From assembly GCA_047611865.1 (NCBI GenBank), contig JBLFWS010000002.1, positions 1 through 62,412 on the forward strand: a stretch of DNA of 62,412 nt, written 5' to 3'. This document shows positions 3,286 through 25,274 of the stretch, piece after piece. A program made the translations under genes and the position numbers. Below the pieces are notes generated by a model. The model worked only from the letters and a program-made list of their open reading frames with translations, was not told where the DNA came from and did not search any database. This stretch comes from Chlamydiales bacterium. GTDB taxonomy: Bacteria; Chlamydiota; Chlamydiia; Chlamydiales; JBDQID01. How positions within the stretch are numbered: the stretch's first letter is position 1; each line of letters starts with the position of its first letter.

Positions 3286-4781
3286 AGTCTTTTTTAAAAA
3301 CCTCTTCTCTAGCTCTCTTGACAGACTTATATGAATTAACAATGTCATATGGTTATTGGAAAGAAGGACTACAGGATAAAGAAACAGTTTTCCATCTATT
3401 TTTTAGAAGGCCCCCCTTTGGTGGCGGTTTTACCATTGCTGCAGGTCTTGAAGAGTTAGTACATTACCTCGAGAACTTTCATTTCGACTCCTCGGATATT
3501 TCCTACCTTGAAACACTAGTAGGTAGTGATGGAACTCCTCTTTTTGAAAGAAAATTTCTAGAGTATCTGTTGCAGATGACTTTTACTTGCGATGTGGATG
3601 CTGTTCCCGAAGGGACGGTTGTATTTCCTCATGAACCATTGCTGCGTATACAGGGGTCTATTATTCAGTGTCAGATTCTGGAAAGCGCTATTTTGAATCA
3701 TATTAATTTTGCCTCTCTGATAGCGACAAAATCTGCGCGGATATGTCTGGCAGCAAAGGGGGATGAGGTTTTGGAGTTTGGTCTCCGGCGGGCTCAAGGA
3801 ATGGACGGAGCAATGACTGCTAGTAGGTCGGCCTTTATCGGAGGTTGTTCAGGTACATCGAATGCTTTGGCTGGAAAAATCTATGGAATCCCCGTGAAGG
3901 GGACTCATGCTCATAGCTGGGTGATGATCTTTGATGATGAGCTCGAATCTTTTGAGGCATATGCCAGAAGTCTGCCTAACAATTGTGTTTTTTTGGTGGA
4001 TACTTACAACACTCTTGAAGCTGTAAAAAAAGTAATCAAAGTTGGCAAAAAACTTAAAGAATCAGGCAAAAAACTTTTGGGAATACGCCTTGATTCAGGT
4101 GATCTTGCCTACCTTAGTGTAGAGTGTAGAAAGCTGCTTGACGAAGCTGGTTTCCATGATACTGCAATTGTAGCTAGTAATGAACTTGATGAAACAATCA
4201 TTAGTGATTTGAAAAGCCAAGGGGCCCAAATTTCTATTTGGGGGGTGGGAACAAATTTAGTTACTGCTCGGGATAATCCTGCTTTAGACGGTGTGTATAA
4301 GCTTTCTGCAGTAAGAGATCCAGGAGGTGAGTGGAAATATAAATTAAAACTCTCAGAACAAATGGTAAAAGTATCTAACCCGGGAATTTTACAGGTAAGA
4401 CGCTATTCTATGGATGGAGAAAATCGAGCCGACGTCCTTTACGATGTGCCCACAGGCCTATCAAAAACCCGTACAATTATTGATCCTCTTGATGCTACAA
4501 GGATGAAAAATCTACCTCATGAAATGGAATATGAAGATTTACTTTGTCCTATTTTTAGGGAAGGTAAACGAGTATATAAATTGCCCGAATTAGGAGAGAT
4601 AAGAGAAAAAGTTCAGGACGAGTTAGCTAGGTTTCATTCTGGTGTTAAGCGTTTTATTAACCCTCACCAATATGTTGTTGGCTTTGACGAGGCGTTCTAT
4701 GAAATGAAAATAGACCTTATTAAAAAAGTACGTAGCTTGAATCACAATTCGAAAAATGAAGAACCGGGAAAGATAATATGA
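3282..4781 (+). CDS. pncB: Nicotinate phosphoribosyltransferase
   Basis: 499 aa. LLTDLYELTMSYGYW, GTHAHSW and GIRLDSGDL are characteristic NAPRTase motifs. Confidence 0.85.
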   Translation: MKSFLKTSSLALLTDLYELTMSYGYWKEGLQDKETVFHLFFRRPPFGGGFTIAAGLEELVHYLENFHFDSSDISYLETLVGSDGTPLFERKFLEYLLQMTFTCDVDAVPEGTVVFPHEPLLRIQGSIIQCQILESAILNHINFASLIATKSARICLAAKGDEVLEFGLRRAQGMDGAMTASRSAFIGGCSGTSNALAGKIYGIPVKGTHAHSWVMIFDDELESFEAYARSLPNNCVFLVDTYNTLEAVKKVIKVGKKLKESGKKLLGIRLDSGDLAYLSVECRKLLDEAGFHDTAIVASNELDETIISDLKSQGAQISIWGVGTNLVTARDNPALDGVYKLSAVRDPGGEWKYKLKLSEQMVKVSNPGILQVRRYSMDGENRADVLYDVPTGLSKTRTIIDPLDATRMKNLPHEMEYEDLLCPIFREGKRVYKLPELGEIREKVQDELARFHSGVKRFINPHQYVVGFDEAFYEMKIDLIKKVRSLNHNSKNEEPGKII

Positions 4782-7030: not shown

Positions 7031-7115
7031 TTTAAAATAATTTGACTTAGTATGGGTTTGAATATCGCCTCCAACTTAGGCAATCAAGATTTTTTTGTAT
7101 AGGATCTTCCGTGCT

Positions 7116-7394
7116 CTATGGAAGGGATTTTTCTATTTCTTTTTTCGTTGATCCTTCCAGTAAAATTTGTTTGTGGCGGCTAGTATCTCCTCGAAGTAAG
7201 ATAATCCTGGATTTTGGCAATTTGAAAGTTTTGGAAAGAAACTTAATAAGTTCCGCATTTGCAGCTCCTTTTTCAGGGACTGCGTTGAGGCGAACCTTTA
7301 GTTCATCATTTTCCCATCCGGTAATGAGATTTTTTCCAGACTTGGGAGTTACTTTTACTAAAATAATTACGCCTTTTGGATGTTCCTTAAGCAT
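7116..7394 (-). CDS. DUF167 (YggU/UPF0235) family protein
   Basis: 92 aa. VKVTPKSGKN...LKVRLNAVPEKGAANAELIKFLSK...I..G.TSR.K matches the YggU-type pattern. Confidence 0.75.
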   Translation of the reverse strand: MLKEHPKGVIILVKVTPKSGKNLITGWENDELKVRLNAVPEKGAANAELIKFLSKTFKLPKSRIILLRGDTSRHKQILLEGSTKKEIEKSLP

Positions 7395-7639
7395 AAAGAA
7401 GCTCCTTCTTTTGGCTGGGACGTAATGAGAAATTTAGATGAAAGAGGGAAAAAAGTGTATTTCTAGATGATTTAAGTGGAATTTAGCTGTTTGCTTGTGC
7501 ATTAGCCTGTTACAAACATATATTAAAATTAAATTTTAAAGCACATAGGATCAGCGGCCTTTTCATAGAACTGGCTTTACAATTAAGCTACTTTACGACA
7601 CAATCTTGAGGTAAAATCTTAGGATATTTTTTGAAAGAG

Positions 7640-7713
7640 TGGGGCAAGAGGGACTTGAACCCCCGACCAACGGATTATGAGTCCGTTGCTCTAACCAACT
7701 GAGCTATTGCCCC
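7640..7713 (-). tRNA. tRNA with CAU anticodon (elongator Met, or Ile2 if lysidinylated)
   Basis: The reverse complement folds as a 74-nt cloverleaf: GGGGCAA/TTGCCCC acceptor, GCTC/GAGC D stem, ACGGA-CTCATAA-TCCGT anticodon arm and TTCAAGT T loop. No CCA is encoded. Confidence 0.9.
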
Positions 7714-9246: not shown

Positions 9247-10257
9247 ATGAAAAAAATTAAAATAAGTCTTACGTTTCTGTTCATATTTGGAGGCTCGGCG
9301 ATCTTGTCATCTCATGAGGTGCTGGAGCCAGCCGAAGAAGTCAATGAAGTAGTTTCATTGACTGTAAAGGAGAAAAATTTTGACGTTTCTTCTCAAGTAG
9401 CAGAGTCTTTCAAAGAGGAAGAAAGTGGTAGCGAGGACGTTGTAGCGGATTATACATATGGAGAATGGCTACCAGAGAAAGCGTCTTTGTATAGACCCAT
9501 GATCGCTGACCCTAGAAAATTAGGGTATTCCGCGGGATATAGGTTCTATGATGATGCTATTAGCTCTAATTCAGTGGGAGTATCTCTTGGCGAAGTTCTC
9601 CCACTATATCGTTGGGAAGACTTAACTATTCTTGAACAAAAGGGTGATTTACAATTGGGATTAATGGCAGCAACGTGGGTAGTTTTTGACTTTTCTTCCT
9701 TTGATGACTTTGGGCAAATTATTAACGCTGATTATGAAACAGGGGTTCATGTTTCTTTCCTGGCAGACAATAAGTGGTCATATAGGTTTAGGCTTTATCA
9801 TTTGTCTTCTCATTTGGGTGATGAATTTATTAAGGCTCATCCTCAGGTCGAACGCTTAAATCCCAGTTTTGAGGCCACAGACATATTTGCTTCTTATGAC
9901 TTGACTAAAGAAATCCGATTCTACGGTGGAGCAGGGTATATTTTGCGAAGCGATAGCTCTTTTTCCCTCCATCCCCTATATGGAGATGCAGGGGTAGAGC
10001 TCAGACTATTTGGAAAAGAAGACAAGAAACATGGACTATACAGGCAGCCCTTTTTTGCTATGCACTTTCGGCACTGGGAAGATAAGGGTTGGGAGTCTGA
10101 TTCGACCTATTTACTGGGGGTAGAATGGGCAAAAATTAAGGGCTACGAACGCAGAACAAGATTATACCTTGAGTATCATGACGGATTTTCCTTGGAGGGA
10201 CAGTTCTCCAAAGACCCGACTACTTACTTAAGTATAAATATTGGAATTGGCTATTAG
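9247..10257 (+). CDS. Secreted outer-membrane-like protein, DUF1207-like
   Basis: It has a signal peptide and the motif ADPRK...LYHLSSHLGDEF, which I remember from DUF1207. The C-terminal INIGIGY has an aromatic end typical of beta-barrel outer membrane proteins. Confidence 0.6.
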   Translation: MKKIKISLTFLFIFGGSAILSSHEVLEPAEEVNEVVSLTVKEKNFDVSSQVAESFKEEESGSEDVVADYTYGEWLPEKASLYRPMIADPRKLGYSAGYRFYDDAISSNSVGVSLGEVLPLYRWEDLTILEQKGDLQLGLMAATWVVFDFSSFDDFGQIINADYETGVHVSFLADNKWSYRFRLYHLSSHLGDEFIKAHPQVERLNPSFEATDIFASYDLTKEIRFYGGAGYILRSDSSFSLHPLYGDAGVELRLFGKEDKKHGLYRQPFFAMHFRHWEDKGWESDSTYLLGVEWAKIKGYERRTRLYLEYHDGFSLEGQFSKDPTTYLSINIGIGY

Positions 10258-10508: not shown

Positions 10509-12659
10509 TTAAACAGTAGCTTCCTCTGGATTTCCTACAATTACAAAACCATCTTCACAAATGGGTCCACTTTTCCCGATTGGTAAAGAACCTTCGAAAA
10601 ACTTTTGGTAAATATTTAGACCTTGTTTTGCCGTCTGTATACAGAAGAAGCAGTTACTTATCCACTCAGAACCCTTAATGGTTTCATTTTCCAAGTTACA
10701 ACGAAAGCGGCTCGTAATTTTCTGCTTCCAGTAGTCCACTTCTCCAAAAAGAAGAATTGGGTTTGGAGGTGAAGTTCCCACCTTACGACGTACTTCTTCC
10801 AAGCTATATTCAAAATCCGTTCCGATTCCTCCCTTTAGAAAAATAGGGAAGTCGAGATGGAATTCAGCTTGTCTCTCAACAAGTTTGTCAAGTCGGTAAG
10901 TCATTTTCGCTTCGACGTAGGGATTTTGATTCTGTTCATTGACAGAAGAGCCATCTTTACTACGAAAGTCAACAACGTTAGCACAGGATAAGATGTTTAG
11001 TGACTTTGCAACTCTGTTGCCTACCTCCATAGCACCTGGACCGCCACCTGTGACTAAGGCTAGAGGGGTGTTATTATTAAGAAGAGGGTGAGCGAGGTCT
11101 TTTTTAATTTCAAGTATCCCCTGAAAGAGACTTCGCAGTTCTTCTTCAAACAGGTCACTCAATAAGTTAGATCCGTAAATTCCGAATACTGTGGACTTTA
11201 AGAATGTTTCGATAGAGTCATTTGGTACAAACATACCAGAGTCTTTTCCAGGTTTGTGAACGTATTGGAGGATTTTTCCGCTACTTTCGTCTACCCAGTA
11301 GGTAGGGATCGCAAATTTTGCAAGGTCGAGAAGCATGGCCCTGTCCTCAGCAGAGAAAAAATCATCGTAGGAAGTAGATGGATGTTGGAAATAAATTCCC
11401 TTAAGGCAGCGGTGAACCTGGTCTGAAAGGAGCATACGTTTCATGAGAGGGCTGGGAAAGTATCTTGATAAAAGAATTCCCTGACTTGTGACTAAGCCTT
11501 CTTCGATGTTTTTTAAAAAGGGATAAGAGGGCTGCTGTTGTATATAGCGTTCTACCATTAATGCCTGGCGTCCGCCATGGGTGACACCTGGAAAATCTTG
11601 AAGTCGTGGTTCTCTAGTTATCCAGTCTTTCGTTTTTAGGTTTAATAACTGTTCCCCTTTAACAACAAAAACAGAGGTTCGTAGATTTTTGGGTAAAGGT
11701 GCTGTATCAAAGGCTTTGAAAATGGGATCACTAGTTTCGATACAGGCCTGAAGCTGGTCACGGTCTTGAAAAAAAACGTGCTCTCGATGAGGCTCTAAAG
11801 TATAAAACTCCAGAGGAATATCTGTAAGCTCGCTTTGGCTGTCTCCAAACAATTCGTAGATATCTCCAGAGGCGCTAGTGTCAGGCTGTAATACTTTTGC
11901 AGTGGTATGTTCAACACCTTTGGCAAGTAAGTCATTTACAACCAATCCAAAAACTGTACGGATATGCAAAGGTTGAGTTTGCACAAGGAGGATTTTGTCT
12001 TTTTCGACACACTTGGCAGCATCAGGTTGCCAAACTTGGTGGAGTTGGAGAAGATCTCTTGTGCGCAGATCTTTTTCAAGAGCTTTGGTCAGGGTTGGAA
12101 GAAGCCCATAAATAGAAGAGTCGTAAGTGACATTGCCATTTTGTAAGGTCAGATAAGCAACCGTGCGGCCATCAATCTTTTCGAGGACAAGATCACTGCT
12201 ACCTTGCATCCCCCCTAATGACAAAAGGGGCTTTCCCCAACGGTCGGAGCGGCCAAACATCCTTCCTAGATAATCGGGGTCGCGAACTCGCCGGCGTTCG
12301 TCCGCAGCAAAGAGTTTACCGATGATAGCGCCTTCTTTGAGGTGGCGGAGAACTTCTTGTGCGAGTTTACCAATAGCTGTGAGAAGGACTCTTACTTGGG
12401 CGCAGTTATTTTGTGGAGATAGCTCATATTCAATACCTTTCCCATTAAGACCAAGTTGCGCCAAGGTGCTCTTAATGTTGAAAAATACACTTTCGATATC
12501 AATTCTATAGCCTACAAAAGCTGGAGAAATTTGTTCGATGATAACAACTGCTTCTGCCGTAGTATCAGAGAGTTTTGTTAATTTTGTGATTTTTCCATCT
12601 GGTGTAACCAAATCGTAATGACCAGGAAACAGGTAACTTTCCATTTGCATAATTTTCAT
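10509..12659 (-). CDS. Large protein with a C-terminal LOG / PpnN-like (TIGR00730-type Rossmann) domain; N-terminal ~520 aa unassigned
   Basis: 716 aa. The C-terminus carries LALVTGGGPGAMEVGN and FLKGGIGTDFEYSLEE, which resemble the GGGxxGxM and PGGxGTxxE LOG motifs. Confidence 0.6.
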   Translation of the reverse strand: MKIMQMESYLFPGHYDLVTPDGKITKLTKLSDTTAEAVVIIEQISPAFVGYRIDIESVFFNIKSTLAQLGLNGKGIEYELSPQNNCAQVRVLLTAIGKLAQEVLRHLKEGAIIGKLFAADERRRVRDPDYLGRMFGRSDRWGKPLLSLGGMQGSSDLVLEKIDGRTVAYLTLQNGNVTYDSSIYGLLPTLTKALEKDLRTRDLLQLHQVWQPDAAKCVEKDKILLVQTQPLHIRTVFGLVVNDLLAKGVEHTTAKVLQPDTSASGDIYELFGDSQSELTDIPLEFYTLEPHREHVFFQDRDQLQACIETSDPIFKAFDTAPLPKNLRTSVFVVKGEQLLNLKTKDWITREPRLQDFPGVTHGGRQALMVERYIQQQPSYPFLKNIEEGLVTSQGILLSRYFPSPLMKRMLLSDQVHRCLKGIYFQHPSTSYDDFFSAEDRAMLLDLAKFAIPTYWVDESSGKILQYVHKPGKDSGMFVPNDSIETFLKSTVFGIYGSNLLSDLFEEELRSLFQGILEIKKDLAHPLLNNNTPLALVTGGGPGAMEVGNRVAKSLNILSCANVVDFRSKDGSSVNEQNQNPYVEAKMTYRLDKLVERQAEFHLDFPIFLKGGIGTDFEYSLEEVRRKVGTSPPNPILLFGEVDYWKQKITSRFRCNLENETIKGSEWISNCFFCIQTAKQGLNIYQKFFEGSLPIGKSGPICEDGFVIVGNPEEATV

Positions 12660-13166
12660 CTCGATTATCGCTTTAATTGAACTGTCATGGATAGGCTTGA
12701 GAAGAGTTTGTTGTCAAGATATTGGTGAGTATTCTGGTGGTAGAAAAGGCAATACAATTTATTTGTTCGCCTTATATTCGCTATTTTCGAAGAAATTTAC
12801 ATATTCAGAGGGAGGAATTTGTGGGAGGAATGTTTGCAGCTTGTAAATAACCTATATTTGGCAGTAGTTTTATAAGTCAAAATTATCAGGTTTTTGGTTT
12901 AGAAGTCTGGATAGTGAATATAGTATATTTCATTTATTATAAGTTCTTTAGATTGGTTTTAACTGTCACTTACAGGGATGGAAAAAGGGGGGAAGGAAGA
13001 ACGTGAACATTTGGCAAGTAAAATGTTCACAAAGAGTCCTTCAGAGCCTCAAAATAGAACATAGAAATTTCTAATTTGGGTTGTGTTGAATTCCTTTGGG
13101 CTTTATTGTCCACTGTTTTAGTAAAATGGTTTGATTACAAAACCTGAAAGAAAAGACTCTCAAATT

Positions 13167-14075
13167 ATGAGCGATAGCAAGATACCTCGCAGTGTTGGAA
13201 CACATGATGGTACATTTCATGCGGATGAGGTGACAGCCTGTGCCCTACTGCTTTTGTACGATTTAATTGATCGCGATAAAATCTGTCGGACTAGAGATAA
13301 GAATAAACTTGATATTTCGGATTTTGTATGTGACGTTGGTGGGTTCTATGAGCCGGAAAAGCGACTGTTTGATCATCATCAGGCTGATTATCAAGGTGGC
13401 CTCAGTAGTGCTGGTATGATCCTTAAGTATCTTCGGGAAGAGGAAATCATCACACAAAAAGAGTATGACTTCTTCAATAACACTCTTATCACGGGTATAG
13501 ATGCCATTGATAACGGAAGGGTGTCTCCTGTTAAAGGGTTTTGTACTTTCTCAAATGTGATCTCAAATTTCGTCCCTGTTGAGTATACTTGCACTCCAAG
13601 TATGCAGGACGAGGCATTTTTTGAAGCTCTTGATTTCGTTGTAGTTTACCTGACAAGATTAAAAAGTCGCTTTCACTACCATCAAAAGTGTGAAGAAATC
13701 GTTTCCGAGGTAATGGAGAAGTATAAAAATGAAGAATGCCTGATTTTTGATGAAAGCCTGGCATGGTTGGAAAGCTTTTTCGAACTAGATGGTGAGCATC
13801 ACAAAGCCCTTTTCGTTGTAATGCCTTCAGGAGACCATTGGAAACTTCGGGGTATTCCACCAAATTTCGATGACAGAATGAGTGTTCGCCTACCCCTCCC
13901 GCAGGAGTGGGCTGGACTTCTTGAGGGTGATTTGAAGGAGAAATCAAAAATAGCCGGGGCTATCTTTTGTCATAAAGGGCGCTTTATTTCGGTATGGGAA
14001 ACAAGAGAGGATGCCTTGAGAGCTCTGGAATATACTTTAGCACAGGCGAAAAATATAAATCTGGAGACTACATGA
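13167..14075 (+). CDS. MYG1 / UPF0160 family metal-dependent hydrolase
   Basis: VGTHDGTFHADEV and LFDHHQ are hallmarks of the family. ATG at 13167 is preferred over the upstream in-frame TTG at 13131. Confidence 0.8.
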   Translation: MSDSKIPRSVGTHDGTFHADEVTACALLLLYDLIDRDKICRTRDKNKLDISDFVCDVGGFYEPEKRLFDHHQADYQGGLSSAGMILKYLREEEIITQKEYDFFNNTLITGIDAIDNGRVSPVKGFCTFSNVISNFVPVEYTCTPSMQDEAFFEALDFVVVYLTRLKSRFHYHQKCEEIVSEVMEKYKNEECLIFDESLAWLESFFELDGEHHKALFVVMPSGDHWKLRGIPPNFDDRMSVRLPLPQEWAGLLEGDLKEKSKIAGAIFCHKGRFISVWETREDALRALEYTLAQAKNINLETT

Positions 14076-15103: not shown

Positions 15104-15149
15104 CAGTTAAATCCCGATCTTTCGATTGTTTAAATTATGTGTTTACACA

Positions 15150-16871
15150 ATGCCGATAATTTTCTTATTTTTTTTATTTATCCTAACGCCATCTCTGAAC
15201 TATTCTGCAGATGAAGAAGCAAGTATTTCAAGGCGTATTGCTCTACACTTACTTTTGGAAGATTCAAGTGAGGCTTTAGCTATAGCCCGTAAATCACTTG
15301 AAAAGTATCCAGAATCACGTTTAATTCAGAATTTTTTGATAAAATCTTATGTTGCATCGGGAAATGGGAAAGCAGCTTTATCGGCTTGGAACTCCTATGT
15401 AAAGTTGTTTCCTGAATGTTTGGATGACCATGACTTGCTAGAACAAATTTGTTGGGCAGTAATTCGAAATGGAGCAGGGCAATCATCTCTGAATGTTCGT
15501 TTACATTCTCTAATAGGAGCTGTACTAGGACGCGATGCTTATTCAGTTCCTATAGTTAGAAGTAATTTGCGCTCTTCAAACTCCTTACTTCGGGGTATAG
15601 CAGTCAGGCTTACGTGTAGTTTAGGGGACACAGAATTACAAAAAGAAGTCTTAAATATTCTCCGTAATGATAACTCTTGGAATGTTCGTCTTGAAGCAAT
15701 CAAAGCTGTTGGGAAGATGCAGATGCATGAGGCTCAAGATGATTTAGAAGAGATACTATCAAGTTCTACAAGTTCAGCGGAAGAAAAAGCAGCTGCTATT
15801 GGTTCTACTCTGGAGCTGTTTCGAACAGTAGGAGAAGATGAAATTCTTAGACTTTCAAAAAGTGATCGTGTTGGCCTGCGGACCCTAGCTTGTGAGCTTG
15901 TCGCTTATTTTGATTTACAGGCCAGTTTTGTTTTTATAGAACCTCTTATTCAAGATTCACATCCTATGGTTCGTTCTGCGGCGATGAAAGTTTTTGGCTT
16001 TTCTCGGACGGAATATCCTCTTGCTCTTGTGCAGCAAGCTCTTTTGGATAAAGATAAATCCGTAGCCGTTATGAGTGCTTGGTTGTTAGTTATTAGTGAG
16101 AAAATGAAGCCAGAAGATGCGTATGCTCAACTTTTATCTCATGAACTTAGTGAGGTGAGGGCTCTGGCTGCTTCTTCTTTGGCTGCTACAGGGAAGTATG
16201 GGCTTGATTATTCCTTAAGGGTTTTTGAGGTAAATGAGGACCCTTTTGTACGAGCAAACCTTGCAATGGGACTCATTGGGCAACGTACTGAGGTTGAACG
16301 TTCTTGCGACGCGCTCCTATCATTGTTGGAAAGAGGTGAGCAAGTAATGTGGAAAGTTCAGGGGAGTGGGATGTTCAGAGCCCTTCAGCAAGGAAAACTC
16401 CGTCATCTTGATGGAGATTTTAATTATCCAGAGGTCATGAATCAAGTTTGTCGATTGGAAGTGCTGAATACCTTGGCGGTTATGAACTATAAGCTTGCAC
16501 TTGATGGGGTTCGAAGGTTTCTTCATGAAAAAAACTGGGGGATCACAGCCTTTGCGGCTGAAGTGCTTTTGCAAGAAGGGGATGAGTCTGTATTTGGAAT
16601 ACTTAGAGAACTACTCTCTGACTCTGATAAGCATGTTCGGGTTCAGGCTGCTCTGGCATTAGCTATCTGGGGAAAGGATCAAGATGTTGTGGACGTTCTT
16701 CAGGAAGCTTATCCCGAAGCGGATAGAGAACTAAAGGCGACGATTCTTGAAGCCATCGGATTTATAGGTGGTGCGGAGGCTTTTCCCTTTTTAGTTGATA
16801 GGCTGGGAGAGCCATTTCAGACTTTAAGAATAATTGCTGCAGCTTCTCTTATTCAAGGGATTAACAAATAG
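15150..16871 (+). CDS. HEAT-repeat protein with N-terminal signal/anchor
   Basis: It has repeated units of about 30 aa of the type VR..A..ALG (for example VRLEAIKAVGKM, VRSAAMKVFG, VRALAASSLA, VRVQAALALAIWG). The N-terminus is hydrophobic (MPIIFLFFLFILTPS). Confidence 0.7.
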   Translation: MPIIFLFFLFILTPSLNYSADEEASISRRIALHLLLEDSSEALAIARKSLEKYPESRLIQNFLIKSYVASGNGKAALSAWNSYVKLFPECLDDHDLLEQICWAVIRNGAGQSSLNVRLHSLIGAVLGRDAYSVPIVRSNLRSSNSLLRGIAVRLTCSLGDTELQKEVLNILRNDNSWNVRLEAIKAVGKMQMHEAQDDLEEILSSSTSSAEEKAAAIGSTLELFRTVGEDEILRLSKSDRVGLRTLACELVAYFDLQASFVFIEPLIQDSHPMVRSAAMKVFGFSRTEYPLALVQQALLDKDKSVAVMSAWLLVISEKMKPEDAYAQLLSHELSEVRALAASSLAATGKYGLDYSLRVFEVNEDPFVRANLAMGLIGQRTEVERSCDALLSLLERGEQVMWKVQGSGMFRALQQGKLRHLDGDFNYPEVMNQVCRLEVLNTLAVMNYKLALDGVRRFLHEKNWGITAFAAEVLLQEGDESVFGILRELLSDSDKHVRVQAALALAIWGKDQDVVDVLQEAYPEADRELKATILEAIGFIGGAEAFPFLVDRLGEPFQTLRIIAAASLIQGINK

Positions 16872-17376: not shown

Positions 17377-18597
17377 GTGAAAATTGAAGACAAGTTGCGA
17401 GATGTACAGAAAAAACTTGAAGAGGAGGGCTTAGATGGATGGCTACTCTATGATTTTCGCTGCAGTAACGATTTAGCTTTTGAATTTTTGGAGATACCTG
17501 CTGAAAAGTTTTTTACCAGGCGATTTTTCTATTGGATTCCCAGCAGAGGAAAACCTATAAAAATAGTTCACCGCATAGAATCCGAAAATTTAGATCACCT
17601 TCCTGGAGATAAATGGAGATATCTTGCATGGCAAGAATTGGAAAGTCATGTAGAGAAGGTCCTTAGCGGAGCAAAACGAATTGCGATGGAATACTCTCCA
17701 AGAAACGCCATTCCCTACGTTTCCAAAGTTGATGCTGGCACTATGGATATGGTTCGAGATTGTGGCGTCGAAGTAGTTAGTTCTGCTGATTTTTTACAAA
17801 TATATACCTCTGTGTGGGATAAGCATAAGTTGAAAACTCACCTTGAAGCAGCTGATGTTCTAGATCAAGTCGTAGCCAAATCCTGGGAACTTATTGCAAA
17901 AAAATTGAAAGGCGGACAAGAACTCACAGAATATGATGTTCAACAGTTTATTCTTTCGGAATTCGAGAAGCACAATTGTATAACGGAGGGGCCTCCTATT
18001 TGTGCTACCAACGAACACGCTGCAGATCCGCATTATATTCCTGCTTCAAATGGGTCAAGCTTGATAAAAGAAGGGGATTTTATCCTCATTGACCTTTGGT
18101 GTAAAAAGAATGTTCCTTACGCAACATATGGTGATATTACTCGTGTTGGTGTTGCTGCAAAATCGCCAACGGCAAGACAGCAGGAAATTTTTAGTATTGT
18201 AAAAGATGCAAGAGACTTTGGAACACAGCTTGTAAAAGAAAGGTTTGAGAGGCAAGAGCCTTTGATGGGTTGGGAAATAGATGCGGCCTGTCGTAAAGTT
18301 ATTGAAGATGCAGGCTATGGGGAGTATTTTATACATAGAACGGGGCACAATATTGATGTAAATGACCATGGGAATGGTGCTCATATTGATAATTTAGAAA
18401 CGCAAGATAAAAGGCGCATTCTTCTTGGCACATGCTTTTCGATCGAACCTGGTATCTATATTCCTGGAGAATTAGGAGTAAGACTTGAGTATGATGTTGT
18501 TGTTCATCATGATGGGACTGTACAGGTTACAGGAGGCATTCAAGAGTCTATAACCTGCATCATGACCTCAGAAGCTTACACAAGTGGAATTTCTTAA
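17377..18597 (+). CDS. M24 family Xaa-Pro aminopeptidase/dipeptidase
   Basis: 406 aa. The pita-bread-fold metal ligands lie in ILIDLW...GDITR...HRTGHNI...EPGIY...RLEYDV. GTG start with a GGGGGAGG Shine-Dalgarno sequence. Confidence 0.8.
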   Translation: MKIEDKLRDVQKKLEEEGLDGWLLYDFRCSNDLAFEFLEIPAEKFFTRRFFYWIPSRGKPIKIVHRIESENLDHLPGDKWRYLAWQELESHVEKVLSGAKRIAMEYSPRNAIPYVSKVDAGTMDMVRDCGVEVVSSADFLQIYTSVWDKHKLKTHLEAADVLDQVVAKSWELIAKKLKGGQELTEYDVQQFILSEFEKHNCITEGPPICATNEHAADPHYIPASNGSSLIKEGDFILIDLWCKKNVPYATYGDITRVGVAAKSPTARQQEIFSIVKDARDFGTQLVKERFERQEPLMGWEIDAACRKVIEDAGYGEYFIHRTGHNIDVNDHGNGAHIDNLETQDKRRILLGTCFSIEPGIYIPGELGVRLEYDVVVHHDGTVQVTGGIQESITCIMTSEAYTSGIS

Positions 18598-19835
18598 TGG
18601 CGAATGATCAGAGCGTTTCAAAACTTGACATAATTACGACATCTTTCCTGGTAGGAGGTACATGTATTGGTGGGGGGATGCTTGGACTTCCAGTAGGTTC
18701 CAGCTTGAGCGGATTCTTCCCATCAACATTGATGTTACTGGTTTGTTGGGTGTTCATGACGATTTCTGGTCTTCTCATTCTTGAGGTTAACCTCTGGATG
18801 GACAAGGGGGCTCATATCATCACGATGGCTTCAAAAATGCTTGGCCCATGGGGTAAAGGGTTCGCCTGGGTTCTCTATCTTTTTATTGGTTATGCTTCCC
18901 TAGTTGCTTATATGGCTGGCGGTGGGGGACAAATTAATCAATTGATGGAACTGGCTCTCGGCGCTCGGCCAGAGAAATGGATTGGTTGTCTTGTATTTGC
19001 AGTTGGGGCGGGATCAGTAATTTTTTTTGGTGGAAAGCTCGTTGGCCGGGTAAATACCATTTTATTTACCGCGATGATTGCTTCTTACGGTATATTAGTC
19101 TTTCTGGGAAGTTCTGAAATTAAGTTTGACCTTTTGGCAAGGAAAGACTGGGGCAGGTCCATGTTTTCTATCCCAATTCTTCTGACTGCATTCAGCTTTC
19201 AAACAATCGTACCCAGCCTTACTCCCGTTTTGAATGGGAATGCCAAATGGTTACGTTTTTCAATTGTTTTTGGTACGACCATATCTCTATGTGTCTATCT
19301 ATTATGGCAAGCTATTGTTCTGGGAACTGTCCCTATGGATGGGCCTCATGGTTTAGCAGAAGCTTATGTAGAAGGAAATCCGGCGACATGCTGCTTGGTA
19401 TATACGGCTGAAAGTGCCTGGTTATCGAGTATAGCGGGATTTTTTGCTTTCTTTGCTCTCGTTACGTCTTTTCTTGGGATTGCACTCGGACTCTTTGATT
19501 TTCTTGCTGATGGCTTGAAGATTGAAAAAAAAGGTTTGGGGAATGTAGCTCTAGGCTTATTGGTCGCGGTACCCTCCCTATATTTTGCCATCAGTTATTC
19601 TCGGGCATTTTTGGTAGCAATGGAAATTTCCGGAGGCTTTGGTGACGCAATCCTTAACGGCATAATGCCAGTTATGATGATATGGGTTGGTCGCTATCGG
19701 AAGGGATTACAATCTGAGTACCGATGTCCAGGAGGGAAACCTCTATTAGTACTTGTCTTCTTGTTCTATCTTTTTGTTTGTGGTTTGGAATTTTGGGAGC
19801 AGATTGGGGGGCTCCATTTCTATAGTGCAGACTAG
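18597..19835 (+). CDS. Aromatic amino acid (Tyr/Trp) permease, HAAAP family
   Basis: 412 aa with about 11 TM helices. The N-terminus GGTCIGGGMLGLP is typical of TyrP/Mtr/TnaB-type permeases. The start overlaps the previous stop (TAATG). Confidence 0.75.
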   Translation: MANDQSVSKLDIITTSFLVGGTCIGGGMLGLPVGSSLSGFFPSTLMLLVCWVFMTISGLLILEVNLWMDKGAHIITMASKMLGPWGKGFAWVLYLFIGYASLVAYMAGGGGQINQLMELALGARPEKWIGCLVFAVGAGSVIFFGGKLVGRVNTILFTAMIASYGILVFLGSSEIKFDLLARKDWGRSMFSIPILLTAFSFQTIVPSLTPVLNGNAKWLRFSIVFGTTISLCVYLLWQAIVLGTVPMDGPHGLAEAYVEGNPATCCLVYTAESAWLSSIAGFFAFFALVTSFLGIALGLFDFLADGLKIEKKGLGNVALGLLVAVPSLYFAISYSRAFLVAMEISGGFGDAILNGIMPVMMIWVGRYRKGLQSEYRCPGGKPLLVLVFLFYLFVCGLEFWEQIGGLHFYSAD

Positions 19836-19997
19836 AGATCAATCTTAAACTTGACAGAGTACTAGTTCTACGATCAAATTGAATCGCAGTACTAGGCCTG
19901 TTGCCAAGTCCGGCATATAATTACAACCTTTATATAATAAGCAATTTGTATTATAACAACTTACTACCTATTTAGAATCATTAAAATCAGGTGTATC

Positions 19998-20498
19998 ATG
20001 GGATTAGGATTAGCGATTAAGTGCTTTTTTAAGGCTTTTAAAGACTCTGAAGCAGCGAGAAGGTTTGTCTCTGGAGAAACAGAGAAAATATCTAAGAAAA
20101 ACGATGCCAAAGAAAAAGGGGATTACTCTCATTTACGACTCTTATATCTTCTACAGAATAGCGGCCGTTTTATCGATTTTCTGAAGGAGGATATCTCCCC
20201 ATTCTCTGATGTTCAAGTAGGCACGGTTGTAAGAAAAATTCATGAAGAATGCAGTAAGAGTCTAGAAGATTATATAACGATTAGACCGGTTTTTGAAGGG
20301 CAAGAAGGCAGCTCTGTTACTATCCCAAGCGGTTACGATCCTTCTGAAATTAAAATTGTAGGAAATGTTACTGGGAATACTCCCCTTAAGGGAATTCTCC
20401 GTCACAAAGGCTGGAAAGCTCACAAACTCTCTTTGCCACAGCAATTAGGAGAGAGCAAGCAAGAAGTCTTGGCACCTGCAGAAGTTGAAGTCCAGTAA
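19998..20498 (+). CDS. DUF2760-like protein
   Basis: 166 aa. LRLLYLLQNSGRFIDFLKEDISPFSD, GYDPSEIKIVGNV and the C-terminal LAPAEVEV match my recollection of the DUF2760 consensus. Confidence 0.65.
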   Translation: MGLGLAIKCFFKAFKDSEAARRFVSGETEKISKKNDAKEKGDYSHLRLLYLLQNSGRFIDFLKEDISPFSDVQVGTVVRKIHEECSKSLEDYITIRPVFEGQEGSSVTIPSGYDPSEIKIVGNVTGNTPLKGILRHKGWKAHKLSLPQQLGESKQEVLAPAEVEVQ

Positions 20499-20510
20499 AG
20501 AGGTAAAGTT

Positions 20511-22349
20511 ATGACAAAAGAAAAATATATTATTGGGATTGACCTGGGAACAACGAATTGTACTCTGGCTTATACCAAGCATGAAGAAGCTGCGCAGACA
20601 CAAGGTATGCCAGCCCCTGAAATTCATCAATTTTCTATACCGCAAGTAACTGCTTCCGGAGTTCAGGATGAAAATCTTACTCTCCCTTCCTTTGTCTACT
20701 TTCCTTTGGAAGAAGAGCTTTCCAAAAAGAATGCAGTAATAGCCTGGGGTCCCGAAAGACAGTTTTGTGTAGGGGGCTATGCTCGTGATAGAGGATCTGA
20801 GATGCATGGCAGAATGATTTCCTCTGCGAAATCGTGGCTTTGCCATGACGGGATTGACAGGCGGGAGAAAAACCTTCCTGTAGATGGTGAATCAGAAAAA
20901 ATGAGCGCAGTGGAAGCTTCTGCTGAATACCTTAGGCATCTCAGAGAAGCTTGGGATCAGGAAAAAGTTGAGGCTCCTTTTAAGGAACAGAGCATTTTAA
21001 TTACAGTCCCAGCCTCGTTTGATCCAGCTGCAAGACAGTTGGTACTCGAAGCTGCTACATTGGCAGAATACCCAGAGGTTATCCTCTTAGAGGAGCCGCA
21101 AGCGGCATTTTACTCTTGGTTACACAAGAATAGTGAGACTTGGCGTAAGCAACTTTCTGTGGGCGATCACATATTAGTGGTAGATATTGGAGGGGGAACA
21201 ACGGACTTTAGTCTTATCGCTGCAAAAGACAAAGACGGTGACTTACAACTTGAAAGGGTTTCTGTGGGTTCTCATCTCCTACTTGGAGGAGATAATATGG
21301 ATTTGGCCATGGCTCACATGGTCAAGCAAAAATTGGAAAAAGAAGGGCATTCTATTGATGACTGGCAACTAAGAGAGCTTGTTCATGCCTCCAGGAAAGC
21401 GAAAGAAGTATTAATGGGGGGAGATTCGCTTGAAAGTATAGAGATGACAATACAAGGAAGAGGGAGTAGCTTAATTGGTGGGGCAATAGCTTGCCACATT
21501 ACCAGTACAGAAGTGAAAAAGCTTCTTGTTGATGGATTTTTCCCTTTAGTAGACCCAGAGGAGCAGTCTCAGTCACAGAGAAGGTCAGGCATCCGAGGTT
21601 TAGGCCTGCCATATGCTCAAGATCCTCGGGTATCTTGTCAGTTGGCCAAGTTTTTATCTATGACTGGTGAAAAGGATGGGCAATCAATGGATTCCTTTGT
21701 GATGCCGACCGCTGTTTTGTTCAATGGTGGGGTAATGAAGGCTGAGGCCTTGCAAGAAAGGATTGTAACTTTGCTGAATAGTTGGGCCAAAAAGCTCAAA
21801 AAGGAAGCAGTAAAGGTCTTGGAAGGCCCTGATTTTGACTATTCTGTTGGTAGAGGAGCGGCCAGTTACGGATTGGCCCGTAAGGGAAGTGCTGTCCGTA
21901 TTAAAAGTGGTTCTAGTCGCAATTACTATATAGGTATAGAAGAGGCAATTCCCGCCATTCCCGGACTGGCAGCTCCTCTTAAGGCTTTATGTGTAGTACC
22001 TTTCGGTATGGAGGAGGGTACGGAGCTTGAAATTGAAGGTCAGGAGTTTGCTTTGGTACTTGGGGAGCCGGCAACTTTCCGTTTTTTCTCAAAGTCACCT
22101 GATTTTTCAAAGGGAGAGGAAAGGAGCGTTCCTGGGTCAATAGTTAGAAATTGGGAAAGTGATCTCGAAGAGCTTCATCCAATTGAAACAGTGCTTGACC
22201 AAGGAGCTGATGAGGGGAAAACAGTTAGAATAAAGCTAAAAGCTAAGGTTACAGAATTGGGAGTTCTAGAACTTTGGTGCTTTTCTGAACAGGGAAGAGA
22301 GTGGAAGTTAGAATTCGATATACGTAAAGAAGAAGTCGCTTTACAATAG
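20511..22349 (+). CDS. Atypical Hsp70-family (actin-fold ATPase) protein, not DnaK
   Basis: 612 aa with IGIDLGTTNCTLAY (phosphate-1) and VVDIGGGTTDFSLI (phosphate-2). The C-terminal half does not resemble the DnaK substrate-binding domain or lid. It starts 12 nt after the DUF2760-like ORF. Confidence 0.75.
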   Translation: MTKEKYIIGIDLGTTNCTLAYTKHEEAAQTQGMPAPEIHQFSIPQVTASGVQDENLTLPSFVYFPLEEELSKKNAVIAWGPERQFCVGGYARDRGSEMHGRMISSAKSWLCHDGIDRREKNLPVDGESEKMSAVEASAEYLRHLREAWDQEKVEAPFKEQSILITVPASFDPAARQLVLEAATLAEYPEVILLEEPQAAFYSWLHKNSETWRKQLSVGDHILVVDIGGGTTDFSLIAAKDKDGDLQLERVSVGSHLLLGGDNMDLAMAHMVKQKLEKEGHSIDDWQLRELVHASRKAKEVLMGGDSLESIEMTIQGRGSSLIGGAIACHITSTEVKKLLVDGFFPLVDPEEQSQSQRRSGIRGLGLPYAQDPRVSCQLAKFLSMTGEKDGQSMDSFVMPTAVLFNGGVMKAEALQERIVTLLNSWAKKLKKEAVKVLEGPDFDYSVGRGAASYGLARKGSAVRIKSGSSRNYYIGIEEAIPAIPGLAAPLKALCVVPFGMEEGTELEIEGQEFALVLGEPATFRFFSKSPDFSKGEERSVPGSIVRNWESDLEELHPIETVLDQGADEGKTVRIKLKAKVTELGVLELWCFSEQGREWKLEFDIRKEEVALQ

Positions 22350-23518: not shown

Positions 23519-23590
23519 GCCCAGATAGCTCAGGGGTAGAGCAATTGCATGGTAAGCAATAGGTCGTAGGTTCGATTCCTATTCTGGGCA
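23519..23590 (+). tRNA. tRNA-Thr (GGU)
   Basis: 72-nt cloverleaf: GCCCAGA/TCTGGGC acceptor, anticodon arm ATTGC-ATGGTAA-GCAAT, T loop TTCGATT. It sits immediately upstream of tuf, as in other chlamydiae. Confidence 0.9.
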
Positions 23591-23650: not shown

Positions 23651-24835
23651 ATGGCTAAAGAAAAATTTCAGAGGAACAAACCTCACGTAAACATCGGTAC
23701 TATTGGTCACGTTGACCATGGTAAGACGACATTGACAGCAGCGATTACTAAAGTTTTGTGTGAAGCTGGCGGTGGTAGTTTTCGTGATTATGCATCTATC
23801 GATAATACCCCAGAAGAAAAAGCTCGTGGGATCACCATCAACTCATCGCATGTTGAGTATGAAACAGAAACTCGTCATTACGCACACGTTGACTGTCCTG
23901 GACACGCCGATTACGTTAAAAACATGATCACTGGTGCTGCTCAAATGGATGGAGCTATCCTCGTTGTAGCTGCTACTGATGGTGCTATGCCTCAGACAAG
24001 AGAACACGTTCTTCTTGCTCACCAGGTCAACGTTCCTTCTATCGTTGTATTCCTTAACAAGTGTGACCAGCTCTCAGAAGATGATGAAGAGCTTCTTGAG
24101 CTAGTTGAGATGGAACTGGGTGAACTTCTAGAGTCTAAAGAGTATATGGATACACCAGTTATCCGTGGATCAGCACTTAAAGCTCTTGAAGGCGACGAGA
24201 AATACATTGCTGCAATCAAAGAATTGATGAAAACAGTTGATGAGCATGTGAAAGAGCCTACACGTGAAGTTGACAAGCCTTTCCTAATGCCTATCGAAGA
24301 CGTATTCTCTATTTCCGGTCGCGGTACTGTTGTAACAGGTCGTGTGGAAAGAGGAATCGTTAGAATTAACGATAAAATTCAGATTGTTGGTCTTAAAGAT
24401 ACTCAAGAATCTGTTGCGACAGGTCTTGAAATGTTCAACAAGCTTCTTGACGAAGCACGCGCTGGTGAGAACGTTGGTGTTCTTCTTCGTGGTGTTGGTA
24501 AAGATGACGTACAACGTGGAATGGTTTTAGCTGCTCCTGGTGCCGTTAAGCCACACACGAAGTTTATGGGAACTACATACATCCTGACAAAAGACGAAGG
24601 TGGCCGTCATAAGCCTTTCTTCACAGGTTATAGACCTCAGTTCTACTTCCGTACAACGGACGTGACTGGAACTGTAACGCTTCCTGAAGGTACAGAAATG
24701 GTTATGCCTGGTGATAACATTGAGCTTACAGGTGAGCTATTAGTACCTATCGCTATGGAAGAAGGTATGCAGTTTGCGATTCGTGAAGGTGGACATACCA
24801 TCGGTGCGGGAACGGTAACAAAAATTATCGCGTAA
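23651..24835 (+). CDS. tuf: Elongation factor Tu
   Basis: 394 aa with [18 protein letters not shown] and NKCD GTPase motifs. Confidence 0.98.
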
Positions 24836-24852
24836 ATCTGAATATGCGTTGC

Positions 24853-24887
24853 AAGAACGCAGGCACACTAAGTGTACCTGCGTTCTT
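24853..24887 (+). terminator. Stem-loop between tuf and tRNA-Trp (partial terminator or processing site)
   Basis: AAGAACGCAGG (24853-24863) pairs with CCTGCGTTCTT (24877-24887), with an inner ACACT/AGTGT extension. Only a short T run follows. Confidence 0.45.
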
Positions 24888-24892
24888 TAGTG

Positions 24893-24965
24893 GGGAGTAT
24901 AGCTCAGCTGGTAGAGCAACGGTCTCCAAAGCCGTAGGTCGGGGGTTCAAATCCCTCTGCTCTCG
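24893..24965 (+). tRNA. tRNA-Trp (CCA)
   Basis: 73-nt cloverleaf: anticodon arm ACGGT-CTCCAAA-GCCGT, T loop TTCAAAT. The acceptor stem has two G-U pairs. Confidence 0.85.
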
Positions 24966-25013
24966 TTTTGGAATAGAAAGTAACCTGATTAGGCTGGGGA
25001 GCTCGGCAAAAAG

Positions 25014-25274
25014 GTGACAGCAAAAGTGCACGGCAAGAAAGAACAAGCGAACCTGAATACAGGATCCATCGGAAAAAAGTCTTTTAACTTCGTTGGCGAA
25101 GTTAAGACTGAATTTAAAAAGATAAGTTGGACCGGGAAAGAAGAACTACAAGTTTACACGAAAGTAGTTGTCTTGGCGACGATAGCATTTGGAATGTTAG
25201 TCTTTTTTGCTGATTTAGCAATAAAGAATTCTCTTGAAGCAATCAATATTATTTTGAGGGTTTTTAGTGGCTGA
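25014..25274 (+). CDS. secE: Preprotein translocase subunit SecE
   Basis: 86 aa. VGEVKTEFKKISW...E followed by a single TM helix (VVVLATIAFGMLVFFADLAI). It occupies the conserved position upstream of nusG. The start codon is uncertain. Confidence 0.85.
   Translation: MTAKVHGKKEQANLNTGSIGKKSFNFVGEVKTEFKKISWTGKEELQVYTKVVVLATIAFGMLVFFADLAIKNSLEAINIILRVFSG

Follow-up and report, generated by a model that had tools for sequence, protein, structure and literature searches.

A two-gene DUF2760/Hsp70-like module of Chlamydiota as a candidate membrane-proximal chaperone system with a predicted GrpE-like cofactor

The DNA considered here is a stretch of 62,412 nucleotides from a Chlamydiales bacterium (contig JBLFWS010000002.1 of the GenBank assembly GCA_047611865.1), further referred to as the window. 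It contains two adjacent genes on the forward strand, the first encoding a 166-aa protein of the DUF2760 family and the second a 612-aa protein with similarity to Hsp70. The pair in the window is an ordinary member of a recognised, uncharacterised family. We propose that its products form a membrane-proximal Hsp70-like machine that is independent of J-proteins and has a dedicated GrpE-like cofactor. The probability of this reading is, in our estimate, roughly 0.45.

Both open reading frames (ORFs) are in the same frame, 12 nt apart, exactly where an earlier reading of the window, made from the sequence alone, had placed them, and all peptide motifs quoted in that reading were found in the translations. 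The assignment of the smaller ORF to DUF2760 was borne out by the Pfam profile search. It matched PF10816 with 158.9 bits and E = 6.2e-47 (the gathering cut-off is 25 bits), profile positions 4–124 of 124 being aligned with residues 44–164 of the protein, and all 59 aligned relatives match the same profile. The 612-aa ORF matched the Hsp70 profile PF00012 with 69.5 bits and E = 2.4e-19 (cut-off 20.6 bits), the match covering only profile positions 32–269 of 599. In total, 276 homologues of the DUF2760 protein were found at E ≤ 1e-3, with the best 120 listed. Both genes have hundreds of homologues at about 60% identity, and the named homologues of the pair belong to Parachlamydiaceae, Protochlamydia and other Chlamydiota. 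The nearest relative, locus L081, shares 87–88% of amino acids with the window and retains the gene lengths and the 12-nt spacer. The ratios of nonsynonymous to synonymous substitution rates (dN/dS) between the window and L081 equal 0.07 for DUF2760 and 0.04 for the Hsp70-like gene, the same values as those of the housekeeping neighbours; given that dS is near saturation, these figures are approximate. Both genes are under strong purifying selection, and the hundreds of homologues together with the low dN/dS show that the ORFs are real genes rather than chance ones. The spacer contains a Shine–Dalgarno sequence, which is consistent with co-transcription and translational coupling of the pair.

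The gene neighbourhood was studied in one genome per species using the DUF2760 alignment, which yielded 80 loci, 56 chlamydial and 24 non-chlamydial. The genome scan uses exact matching to two peptide patterns, and at least one cultured species that carries the genes escaped it. An Hsp70-like gene encoding 530–640 aa is located directly 3' of DUF2760 on the same strand in 55 of the 56 chlamydial loci. After refinement of start codons, the median distance between the two genes equals 5 nt; it does not exceed 20 nt in 49 of these 55 loci, and in 14 loci the genes overlap. Such a pattern of gaps is that of co-transcribed, translationally coupled subunits, and the co-conservation on which the earlier reading depended is thus observed. 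The module occupies a fixed core-genome position beside the infA–tuf–rpl–rpoBC cluster across Chlamydiota. The sequence-only reading had also argued for a dedicated function from the retention of the pair in a lineage that sheds dispensable genes. This argument is weak, since related chlamydial metagenome-assembled genomes (MAGs) have contigs of 3.1–3.9 Mb.

Position and selection also bear on the idea that the pair belongs to an anti-phage or other conflict system with an Hsp70-like ATPase, similar to CnuD of CoCoNuT or to the GTPase–Hsp70–GrpE conflict systems. Such systems do include Hsp70-like proteins (PMC11090510, PMC7159879), and one PADLOC candidate, PDC-M61B, was matched weakly and in part. 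However, the matches in PADLOC-DB 2.0 score only 17–23 bits and are confined to the generic phosphate-2 region, the DUF2760 protein has no match in this database, and the contexts of CoCoNuT and of the GTPase–Hsp70 systems differ from that of the module. Moreover, genes for McrBC, a GTPase, a nuclease or another effector do not recur in the vicinity, and neither the fixed place in the core genome nor purifying selection like that on housekeeping neighbours is what this explanation would predict. We rejected membership in a defence system as very unlikely.

The 612-aa protein was aligned to E. coli DnaK by hhalign with a probability of 99.2 over residues 129–343. The E. coli DnaK and GrpE sequences that served as references behaved as expected, DnaK giving the probability just quoted and GrpE retrieving a genuine grpE. 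The catalytic residues were located by direct motif lookup: D8, K70, E171, D194, T199, D201, G228-G229 and G341-G342 of DnaK correspond to D11, K107, E195, D225, T230, D232, G259-G260 and G406-G407 of the window protein, respectively, and all eight residues or pairs are invariant among 54 family members. The phosphate-binding motifs, described as intact from the sequence alone, are so, the quoted peptides being present; an active ATPase is the natural reading of this sequence.

The score of the 612-aa protein is far below the cut-offs of the NCBIfam models for DnaK (59.4 and 62.6 bits for TIGR02350 and NF001413, with cut-offs of 822.55 and 648) and for HscA (81.0 and 82.7 bits for TIGR01991 and NF003520, with cut-offs of 708.55 and 620). 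No HscC model was among its NCBIfam matches, although it was not verified that the library holds one. By these scores, and in agreement with the sequence-only reading, the protein is a divergent member of the Hsp70 superfamily and not an orthologue of DnaK or HscA. The HscA models are nevertheless its best, if weak, NCBIfam matches, and a SufE-domain gene lies just downstream both in the window and in 36 of the 56 chlamydial loci, which suggests an HscA-type chaperone for iron–sulphur clusters that works together with the SufE-like neighbour. We consider this highly improbable: the HscA scores are 81–83 bits against cut-offs of 620–708, the SufE-like gene is convergent on the opposite strand and is found in no non-chlamydial locus, and an HscB-type J-protein is not present.

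The AlphaFold model of the 612-aa protein has a mean predicted local distance difference test score (pLDDT) of 84.5 and a predicted template modelling score (pTM) of 0.82. It consists of an ATPase domain that is enlarged by insertions and ends near residue 460, a short linker and a domain of ten beta strands at residues 471–603; the chain ends 9 residues past the last strand. Judging from its position in the model, the linker would be equivalent to the VLLLD linker of DnaK, and its R and G are invariant or nearly so in the alignment across phyla. The helical lid, that is, the alpha part of the substrate-binding domain (SBD-alpha), is absent from the model, which has no lid-type helices and none after residue 551. 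In the Foldseek comparison of the model with PDB, each of the 50 best matches was a two-domain Hsp70 construct with a length of 493 residues or more and an alignment of some 615–650 columns, and the lowest root-mean-square deviation was obtained for docked, ATP-type states of full-length DnaK. Of the many entries containing the nucleotide-binding domain alone, none is among these 50 matches, which implies a contribution of the C-terminal domain to the fold match. On the sequence level, the C-terminal domain gave no match to Hsp70 SBDs in a profile search of PDB sequences and none to two DnaK SBDs in hhalign. Conservation of the linker and of the beta domain extends across phyla and to both of the paralogues described below. 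Going by the model, the C-terminal domain is probably a lidless beta-sandwich of the SBD-beta type. The sequence-only reading had held that the C-terminal ~230 aa resemble neither an SBD nor a lid. This is correct for the missing lid and for the sequence; however, the model puts a beta-sandwich at the place of SBD-beta. The extent was overestimated as well, given that about 75 of these residues still belong to the ATPase domain and the separate domain has about 140 aa.

The model of the DUF2760 protein (pLDDT 74.8, pTM 0.44) contains helices within residues 2–35, a disordered stretch, a pair of helices at 44–63 and 71–92, and a seven-strand beta domain at 93–165. In the Foldseek search of PDB with this model, the top five matches were all GrpE proteins. 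They come from three organisms, and their alignments cover nearly all of the chain; the best is GrpE from Thermus (3a6m_A, E = 4.4e-3, probability 0.99, TM-score 0.39), and others are human GrpEL1 (9blt, 9bls) and E. coli GrpE (1dkg_A). The matches that follow are unrelated and much weaker. This resemblance is striking because DUF2760 adjoins an Hsp70 homologue in essentially every locus with flanking sequence. We do not assign DUF2760 to the GrpE family; on the strength of the predicted fold, it probably works like GrpE. This changes one half of the earlier statement that neither a J-domain protein nor an exchange partner is encoded nearby. The first half stands: the HPD motif was found in neither protein, no DnaJ match was obtained with Pfam, and no J-domain gene is nearby. 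As to the second, the similarity in fold suggests that DUF2760 may itself be the exchange factor.

A canonical grpE–dnaK pair was observed in a Parachlamydiaceae MAG (L015:12774-15183, minus strand) about 4–6 kb downstream of the module, thus this organism has the standard system plus the extra module.

The N-terminus of DUF2760 precedes the conserved core and differs between groups of the family. Proteins of the chlamydial type begin with an amphipathic helix with the consensus M-G-L-x-L-A-x-K-A-F-F-K-A-x-K, with invariant M1, A6 and F10 and nearly invariant K8 and A13. In the model of the window protein the helix spans residues 2–15, and its hydrophobic moment equals 0.56. Of a diverse set of 150 DUF2760 representatives, 116 belong to the long form (more than 185 aa). 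Transmembrane (TM)-like N-terminal segments are present in 100 of these 116 and number two or more in 90; they are flanked by basic residues, a pattern consistent with a cytoplasmic location of the C-terminal domain. The short, chlamydial-type proteins have no TM-like segments and carry the amphipathic helix at that position; in a third type, this helix is joined to an extended Ala- and Glu-rich stretch that resembles a coiled coil. As the helix and the TM pair replace each other in front of a common core, both may target the cofactor to the membrane, the chlamydial helix being predicted to act as an in-plane element. A pseudo-substrate role of the helix would account less well for its alternation with the TM pair.

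When 1.84 billion representative proteins were searched with the profile, 1,945 DUF2760 clusters were identified at E ≤ 1e-3. The non-chlamydial loci come from Planctomycetota, Lentisphaerota, Desulfobacterota, Acidobacteriota, Fibrobacterota, Riflebacteria, Margulisiibacteriota and other phyla. About ten of them have a three-gene form, in which DUF2760 is followed by a ~600-aa and then by a ~950-aa Hsp70-like paralogue; three have DUF2760 with the long paralogue only, and four or five, with the short paralogue only. The statement of the earlier reading that DUF2760 is encoded beside non-canonical Hsp70s, often two of them, therefore holds for many non-chlamydial loci. The ~950-aa paralogue matches the chlamydial Hsp70-like profile from end to end and additionally has a C-terminal DUF3731 domain (PF12531, E from 1e-80 to 1e-90), an uncharacterised domain labelled ‘DnaK-related protein’. 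With the chlamydial profile the short paralogue scores 660–740 bits and the long one 450–590 bits; since the short one scores higher, the chlamydial protein is its counterpart. The ~950-aa DUF3731 paralogue is absent from the window and from 55 of the 56 chlamydial loci. Hence the chlamydial pair is a minimal version of the module, in agreement with what had been proposed from the sequence. Clustering of the neighbours in the 24 non-chlamydial loci revealed no other recurrent gene and no J-domain protein.

Several variants of the Hsp70-like gene were seen among the loci. In two of them (L013:2806-4510 and L070:8431-10204) the gene is split in two ORFs by a frameshift, as a pseudogene or through an assembly error. 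In L003, a 70-aa ORF (3536-3748) located about 500 nt upstream of DUF2760 scores 100 bits with profile positions 543–608 only, that is, with the last ~65 residues of the Hsp70-like family, and could be left over from a duplication or rearrangement. In six loci (L014, L028, L033, L036, L049 and L052) the Hsp70-like proteins are shorter (530–555 aa) and still span the whole family profile, which implies internal deletions, probably of the insertions in the ATPase domain.

A gene of the Trp/Tyr permease family is located directly upstream of DUF2760 in 45 of the 56 chlamydial loci (L001–L058), the two genes being separated by a median of 8 nt; infA and tuf are found downstream in 26–27 of the loci. 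Short contigs account for most missing neighbours. Given this tight gap, the conserved chlamydial unit is effectively permease, DUF2760 and Hsp70-like gene. No non-chlamydial locus (0 of 24) has the permease upstream of DUF2760, and the functional membership of the permease in the module is uncertain. The sequence-only reading had mentioned neither this linkage nor the membrane-anchoring N-termini of the family.

The linkage could also be taken to mean that the Hsp70-like protein serves in regulation or signalling and not as a chaperone, like Myxococcus StkA or yeast Ssz1, and that its nucleotide state switches a process at the membrane, for instance transport by the adjacent permease. An atypical bacterial Hsp70 with a regulatory phenotype is known: StkA of Myxococcus xanthus (540 aa) negatively regulates exopolysaccharide and, like the protein studied here, is a non-heat-shock, non-essential-type paralogue encoded in a small operon with small partners (PMC4319316). 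The absence of the lid, moreover, speaks against classical client trapping. On the other hand, all 24 non-chlamydial loci have the module without the permease, and the catalytic residues and the linker are all conserved, as in working chaperone Hsp70s. The partners of StkA are SCP2-like and PhaE-like proteins and not DUF2760 (PMC4319316), and the stk locus was rejected as a counterpart of the module. A signalling ATPase is, in our view, unlikely.

The mechanism that we propose for the membrane-proximal machine is as follows. The two genes would encode one dedicated machine, with DUF2760 as its obligate cofactor. The 612-aa protein would be a catalytically competent ATPase equipped with a linker and a lidless beta-sandwich domain for binding of clients. 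The core of DUF2760 would most likely bind the ATPase domain in the way GrpE does and control nucleotide exchange, and its N-terminus would keep the complex on the inner membrane, at its cytoplasmic side, by the amphipathic helix in chlamydiae and by two TM helices in most other phyla. Client binding by a lidless domain would be fast-on and fast-off, which would suit transient handling of membrane or membrane-proximal proteins and not bulk refolding. No J-domain protein would belong to the module. In Chlamydiota only, the Trp/Tyr permease is a speculative candidate for the client or the regulatory target. A broader form of this proposal can be put forward only tentatively, and we regard it as doubtful: DUF2760 would be an unrecognised, membrane-anchored branch of GrpE-like exchange factors that serves a J-protein-independent chaperone system with lidless Hsp70s, comprising about 2,000 clusters in many phyla, and the two-gene form in Chlamydiota would be coupled to the aromatic amino-acid permease and may control how this transporter is assembled, gated or turned over.

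A number of observations weigh against the proposed machine. The TM-scores of the Foldseek matches are low (0.29–0.39), as is the pTM of the DUF2760 model. The Pfam scan found no match to the GrpE family PF01025 at E ≤ 10 in 59 DUF2760 members, and the DUF2760 profile search of PDB sequences found no GrpE. For hhalign, a GrpE profile was built from E. coli GrpE and the genuine chlamydial grpE of L015 with its homologues. The comparison of DUF2760 with this profile gave P = 0.096, a value reached by 6 of 40 block-shuffled controls; with a more diverse DUF2760 profile it gave P = 0.086, reached by 12 of 60. In favour of the link, the best local alignment matches YDPS with FDPH, KGWKA with RGYKM and PAEVEV with RPARVKV, and contains a 12-residue insert that forms a low-confidence loop in the model. 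These motifs of the C-terminal beta domain lie in the signature region of GrpE, which is suggestive and does not amount to evidence. The position of R in the IRAAM motif, which in E. coli GrpE contacts DnaK, is aligned with Ala or Cys in DUF2760. Further, the SBD-like character of the C-terminal domain of the Hsp70-like protein is assigned by the fold of the model only, without support from the sequence, and the hydrophobic moment of the N-terminal helix of DUF2760 is moderate, with other helices of the same protein scoring higher. One chlamydial locus, L042, has an intact DUF2760 gene (7054-7512) and no Hsp70-like gene; only 162 nt separate DUF2760 from the SufE-like gene, and the synteny is unchanged (M24 peptidase, permease, DUF2760, SufE, infA, tuf). 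Therefore DUF2760 may not strictly depend on an adjacent Hsp70-like gene. Finally, the linkage to the permease is confined to Chlamydiota and could be mere synteny.

Part of these observations would be expected if DUF2760 were a membrane adaptor or regulator (a recruitment platform, a factor for client delivery or a stand-in for a J-protein) and not an exchange factor, its likeness to GrpE being convergent or an artefact of the model. The lack of significant sequence similarity to GrpE and the low scores of the model (pTM 0.44, TM-scores of at most 0.39) agree with this, and the membrane-anchoring N-termini fit it; moreover, in a module with no J-domain protein something else must trigger ATP hydrolysis. 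However, five of five top fold matches to GrpE in a protein encoded beside an Hsp70 homologue are unlikely to be a coincidence, and a stand-in for a J-protein would have to act without the HPD motif and without a DnaJ match in Pfam. An adaptor is possible, though less probable than an exchange factor, and is the strongest of the alternatives considered here.

The grpE and dnaK genes are often adjacent and co-transcribed. The module is similar to this system in the adjacency of the two genes, in the identity of the catalytic residues, in the predicted linker and beta-sandwich at the place of SBD-beta, and in the fold predicted for the small partner, which best matches GrpE. It differs from it in that the Hsp70-like protein has no helical lid, an ATPase domain enlarged to ~460 aa and scores of 59–63 bits against DnaK cut-offs of 648–822, that DUF2760 has no detectable sequence similarity to GrpE and belongs to a family with a membrane-targeting N-terminus, and that there is no DnaJ partner. 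The uncharacterised three-gene DUF2760/Hsp70-like/DUF3731 cluster, known from Planctomycetota, Desulfobacterota, Fibrobacterota, Acidobacteriota and others, shares with the chlamydial module a homologous DUF2760, an apparently orthologous ~600-aa paralogue and the gene order, whereas in the chlamydial module the ~950-aa paralogue is absent, an amphipathic helix replaces the two TM segments, and the permease is linked. E. coli HscC, which pairs with the membrane-anchored J-protein DjlC, is comparable in being a specialised Hsp70 paralogue whose lid is reduced and which a cofactor tethered to the membrane recruits; it is different in that this cofactor is a J-domain protein and not a GrpE-like one, and in that HscC keeps a shortened lid. 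HscC is also covered in a 2026 review, which calls the bacterial Hsp70 derivatives other than DnaK and HscA unexplored ‘dark matter’ and notes that bacteria commonly have DnaK derivatives in which the lid is shortened or missing and that these are essentially unstudied (PMC13580251).

In the library searched, no paper names DUF2760, DUF3731, PF10816 or PF12531, nor the InterPro numbers IPR021212 or IPR021030. The predicted GrpE-like fold of DUF2760, the pattern of membrane anchors and the chlamydial permease linkage appear to be new. For a widespread Hsp70 derivative they provide a testable model, that of a lidless Hsp70 with a dedicated partner of predicted GrpE fold and a membrane anchor. 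If the model is true, a function would be assigned to DUF2760 and, by extension, to DUF3731, a new class of Hsp70 cofactors would be defined, and it would be shown that no J-protein is needed to organise an Hsp70 cycle at the membrane. Host and chlamydia are well known to interact over the supply of aromatic amino acids, and for chlamydial biology the module is of interest as a strongly conserved part of the core genome tightly linked to a Trp/Tyr transporter.

The features of the window and the long paralogues are listed in the table. The G+C content is even at ~40%, and no island signature was seen. An M24 peptidase gene and the permease gene precede the module. Downstream, the convergent SufE-like gene is the next after the Hsp70-like gene and is followed by infA, tRNA-Thr, tuf, tRNA-Trp, secE, nusG, rplKAJL and rpoBC. 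The gap between the permease and DUF2760 genes is 162 nt in the window and 97 nt in L081, and a conserved non-coding segment of 82 nt adjoins the DUF2760 start. Synonymous sites of the flanking genes differ between the window and L081 by 56–70%, close to saturation, unlike this segment. It contains TATAAT-like hexamers and is probably a clade-specific dedicated promoter with a 5' leader, inserted between the permease and DUF2760. No Rfam match was obtained for the segment, its RNA stability is not unusual (folding energy z = +0.86), and the scan for promoters and terminators gave counts no higher than the shuffled expectation.

Table. Coordinates of the module, its parts and its neighbours in the window, and of the long paralogues in other loci
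Feature	Position	Strand	Basis or remark
M24 peptidase	17377-18597		upstream
Trp/Tyr permease family gene	18597..19835	+	PF03222, E 9.7e-92
Conserved non-coding segment, 82 nt	19916..19997	+	77/82 nt identical (94%), window vs L081
DUF2760 gene, 166 aa	19998..20498	+	PF10816 match
N-terminal amphipathic helix MGLGLAIKCFFKAFKD, codons 1-16	19998..20045	+	conservation, model, hydrophobic moment
DUF2760 core, codons 44-166, predicted two helices and 7-strand beta domain	20127..20495	+	Pfam match, model
Spacer AGAGGTAAAGTT, 12 nt	20499-20510	+	Shine–Dalgarno AGAGG inside; L081 has AGAGGAAATGTT, same spacing
Hsp70-like gene, 612 aa	20511..22349	+	PF00012 match
Nucleotide-binding domain, codons 1-460, actin fold with insertions	20511..21890	+	PF00012, hhalign, AlphaFold model
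Predicted interdomain linker AVRIKSGSSR, codons 461-470	21891..21920	+	model position, motif lookup
Beta-rich C-terminal domain, codons 471-612 and stop	21921..22349	+	ten strands in model
~950-aa DUF3731 paralogue	L056:10546-13590
~950-aa DUF3731 paralogue	L061:10518-13415
~950-aa DUF3731 paralogue	L078:10458-13292
~950-aa DUF3731 paralogue	L057:3418-6189
~950-aa DUF3731 paralogue	L072:8372-11203

Some other features of the window were observed in passing. Upstream of the module, a 581-aa HEAT/TPR-repeat protein is encoded at 15126-16871 (plus strand); its homologues are found upstream of the module in 18 of the 56 chlamydial loci, which extends the synteny. A 716-aa ORF at 10509-12659 (minus strand) has no Pfam match at E ≤ 1e-3. 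The genes for a DUF1207 protein and for a protein of the MYG1/UPF0160 family are located at 9247-10257 and 13131-14075, and the syntenic region of L042 also starts with a MYG1-like ORF. A gene for tRNA-Met(CAT) lies on the minus strand at 7639-7713. Downstream, tRNA-Thr(GGT) at 23519-23590 and tRNA-Trp(CCA) at 24893-24965 flank tuf in the classical order tRNA-Thr–tuf–tRNA-Trp–secE–nusG–rplKAJL–rpoBC, and a 73-aa ORF on the minus strand (24825-25046) is spurious, as it overlaps the tRNA-Trp gene.

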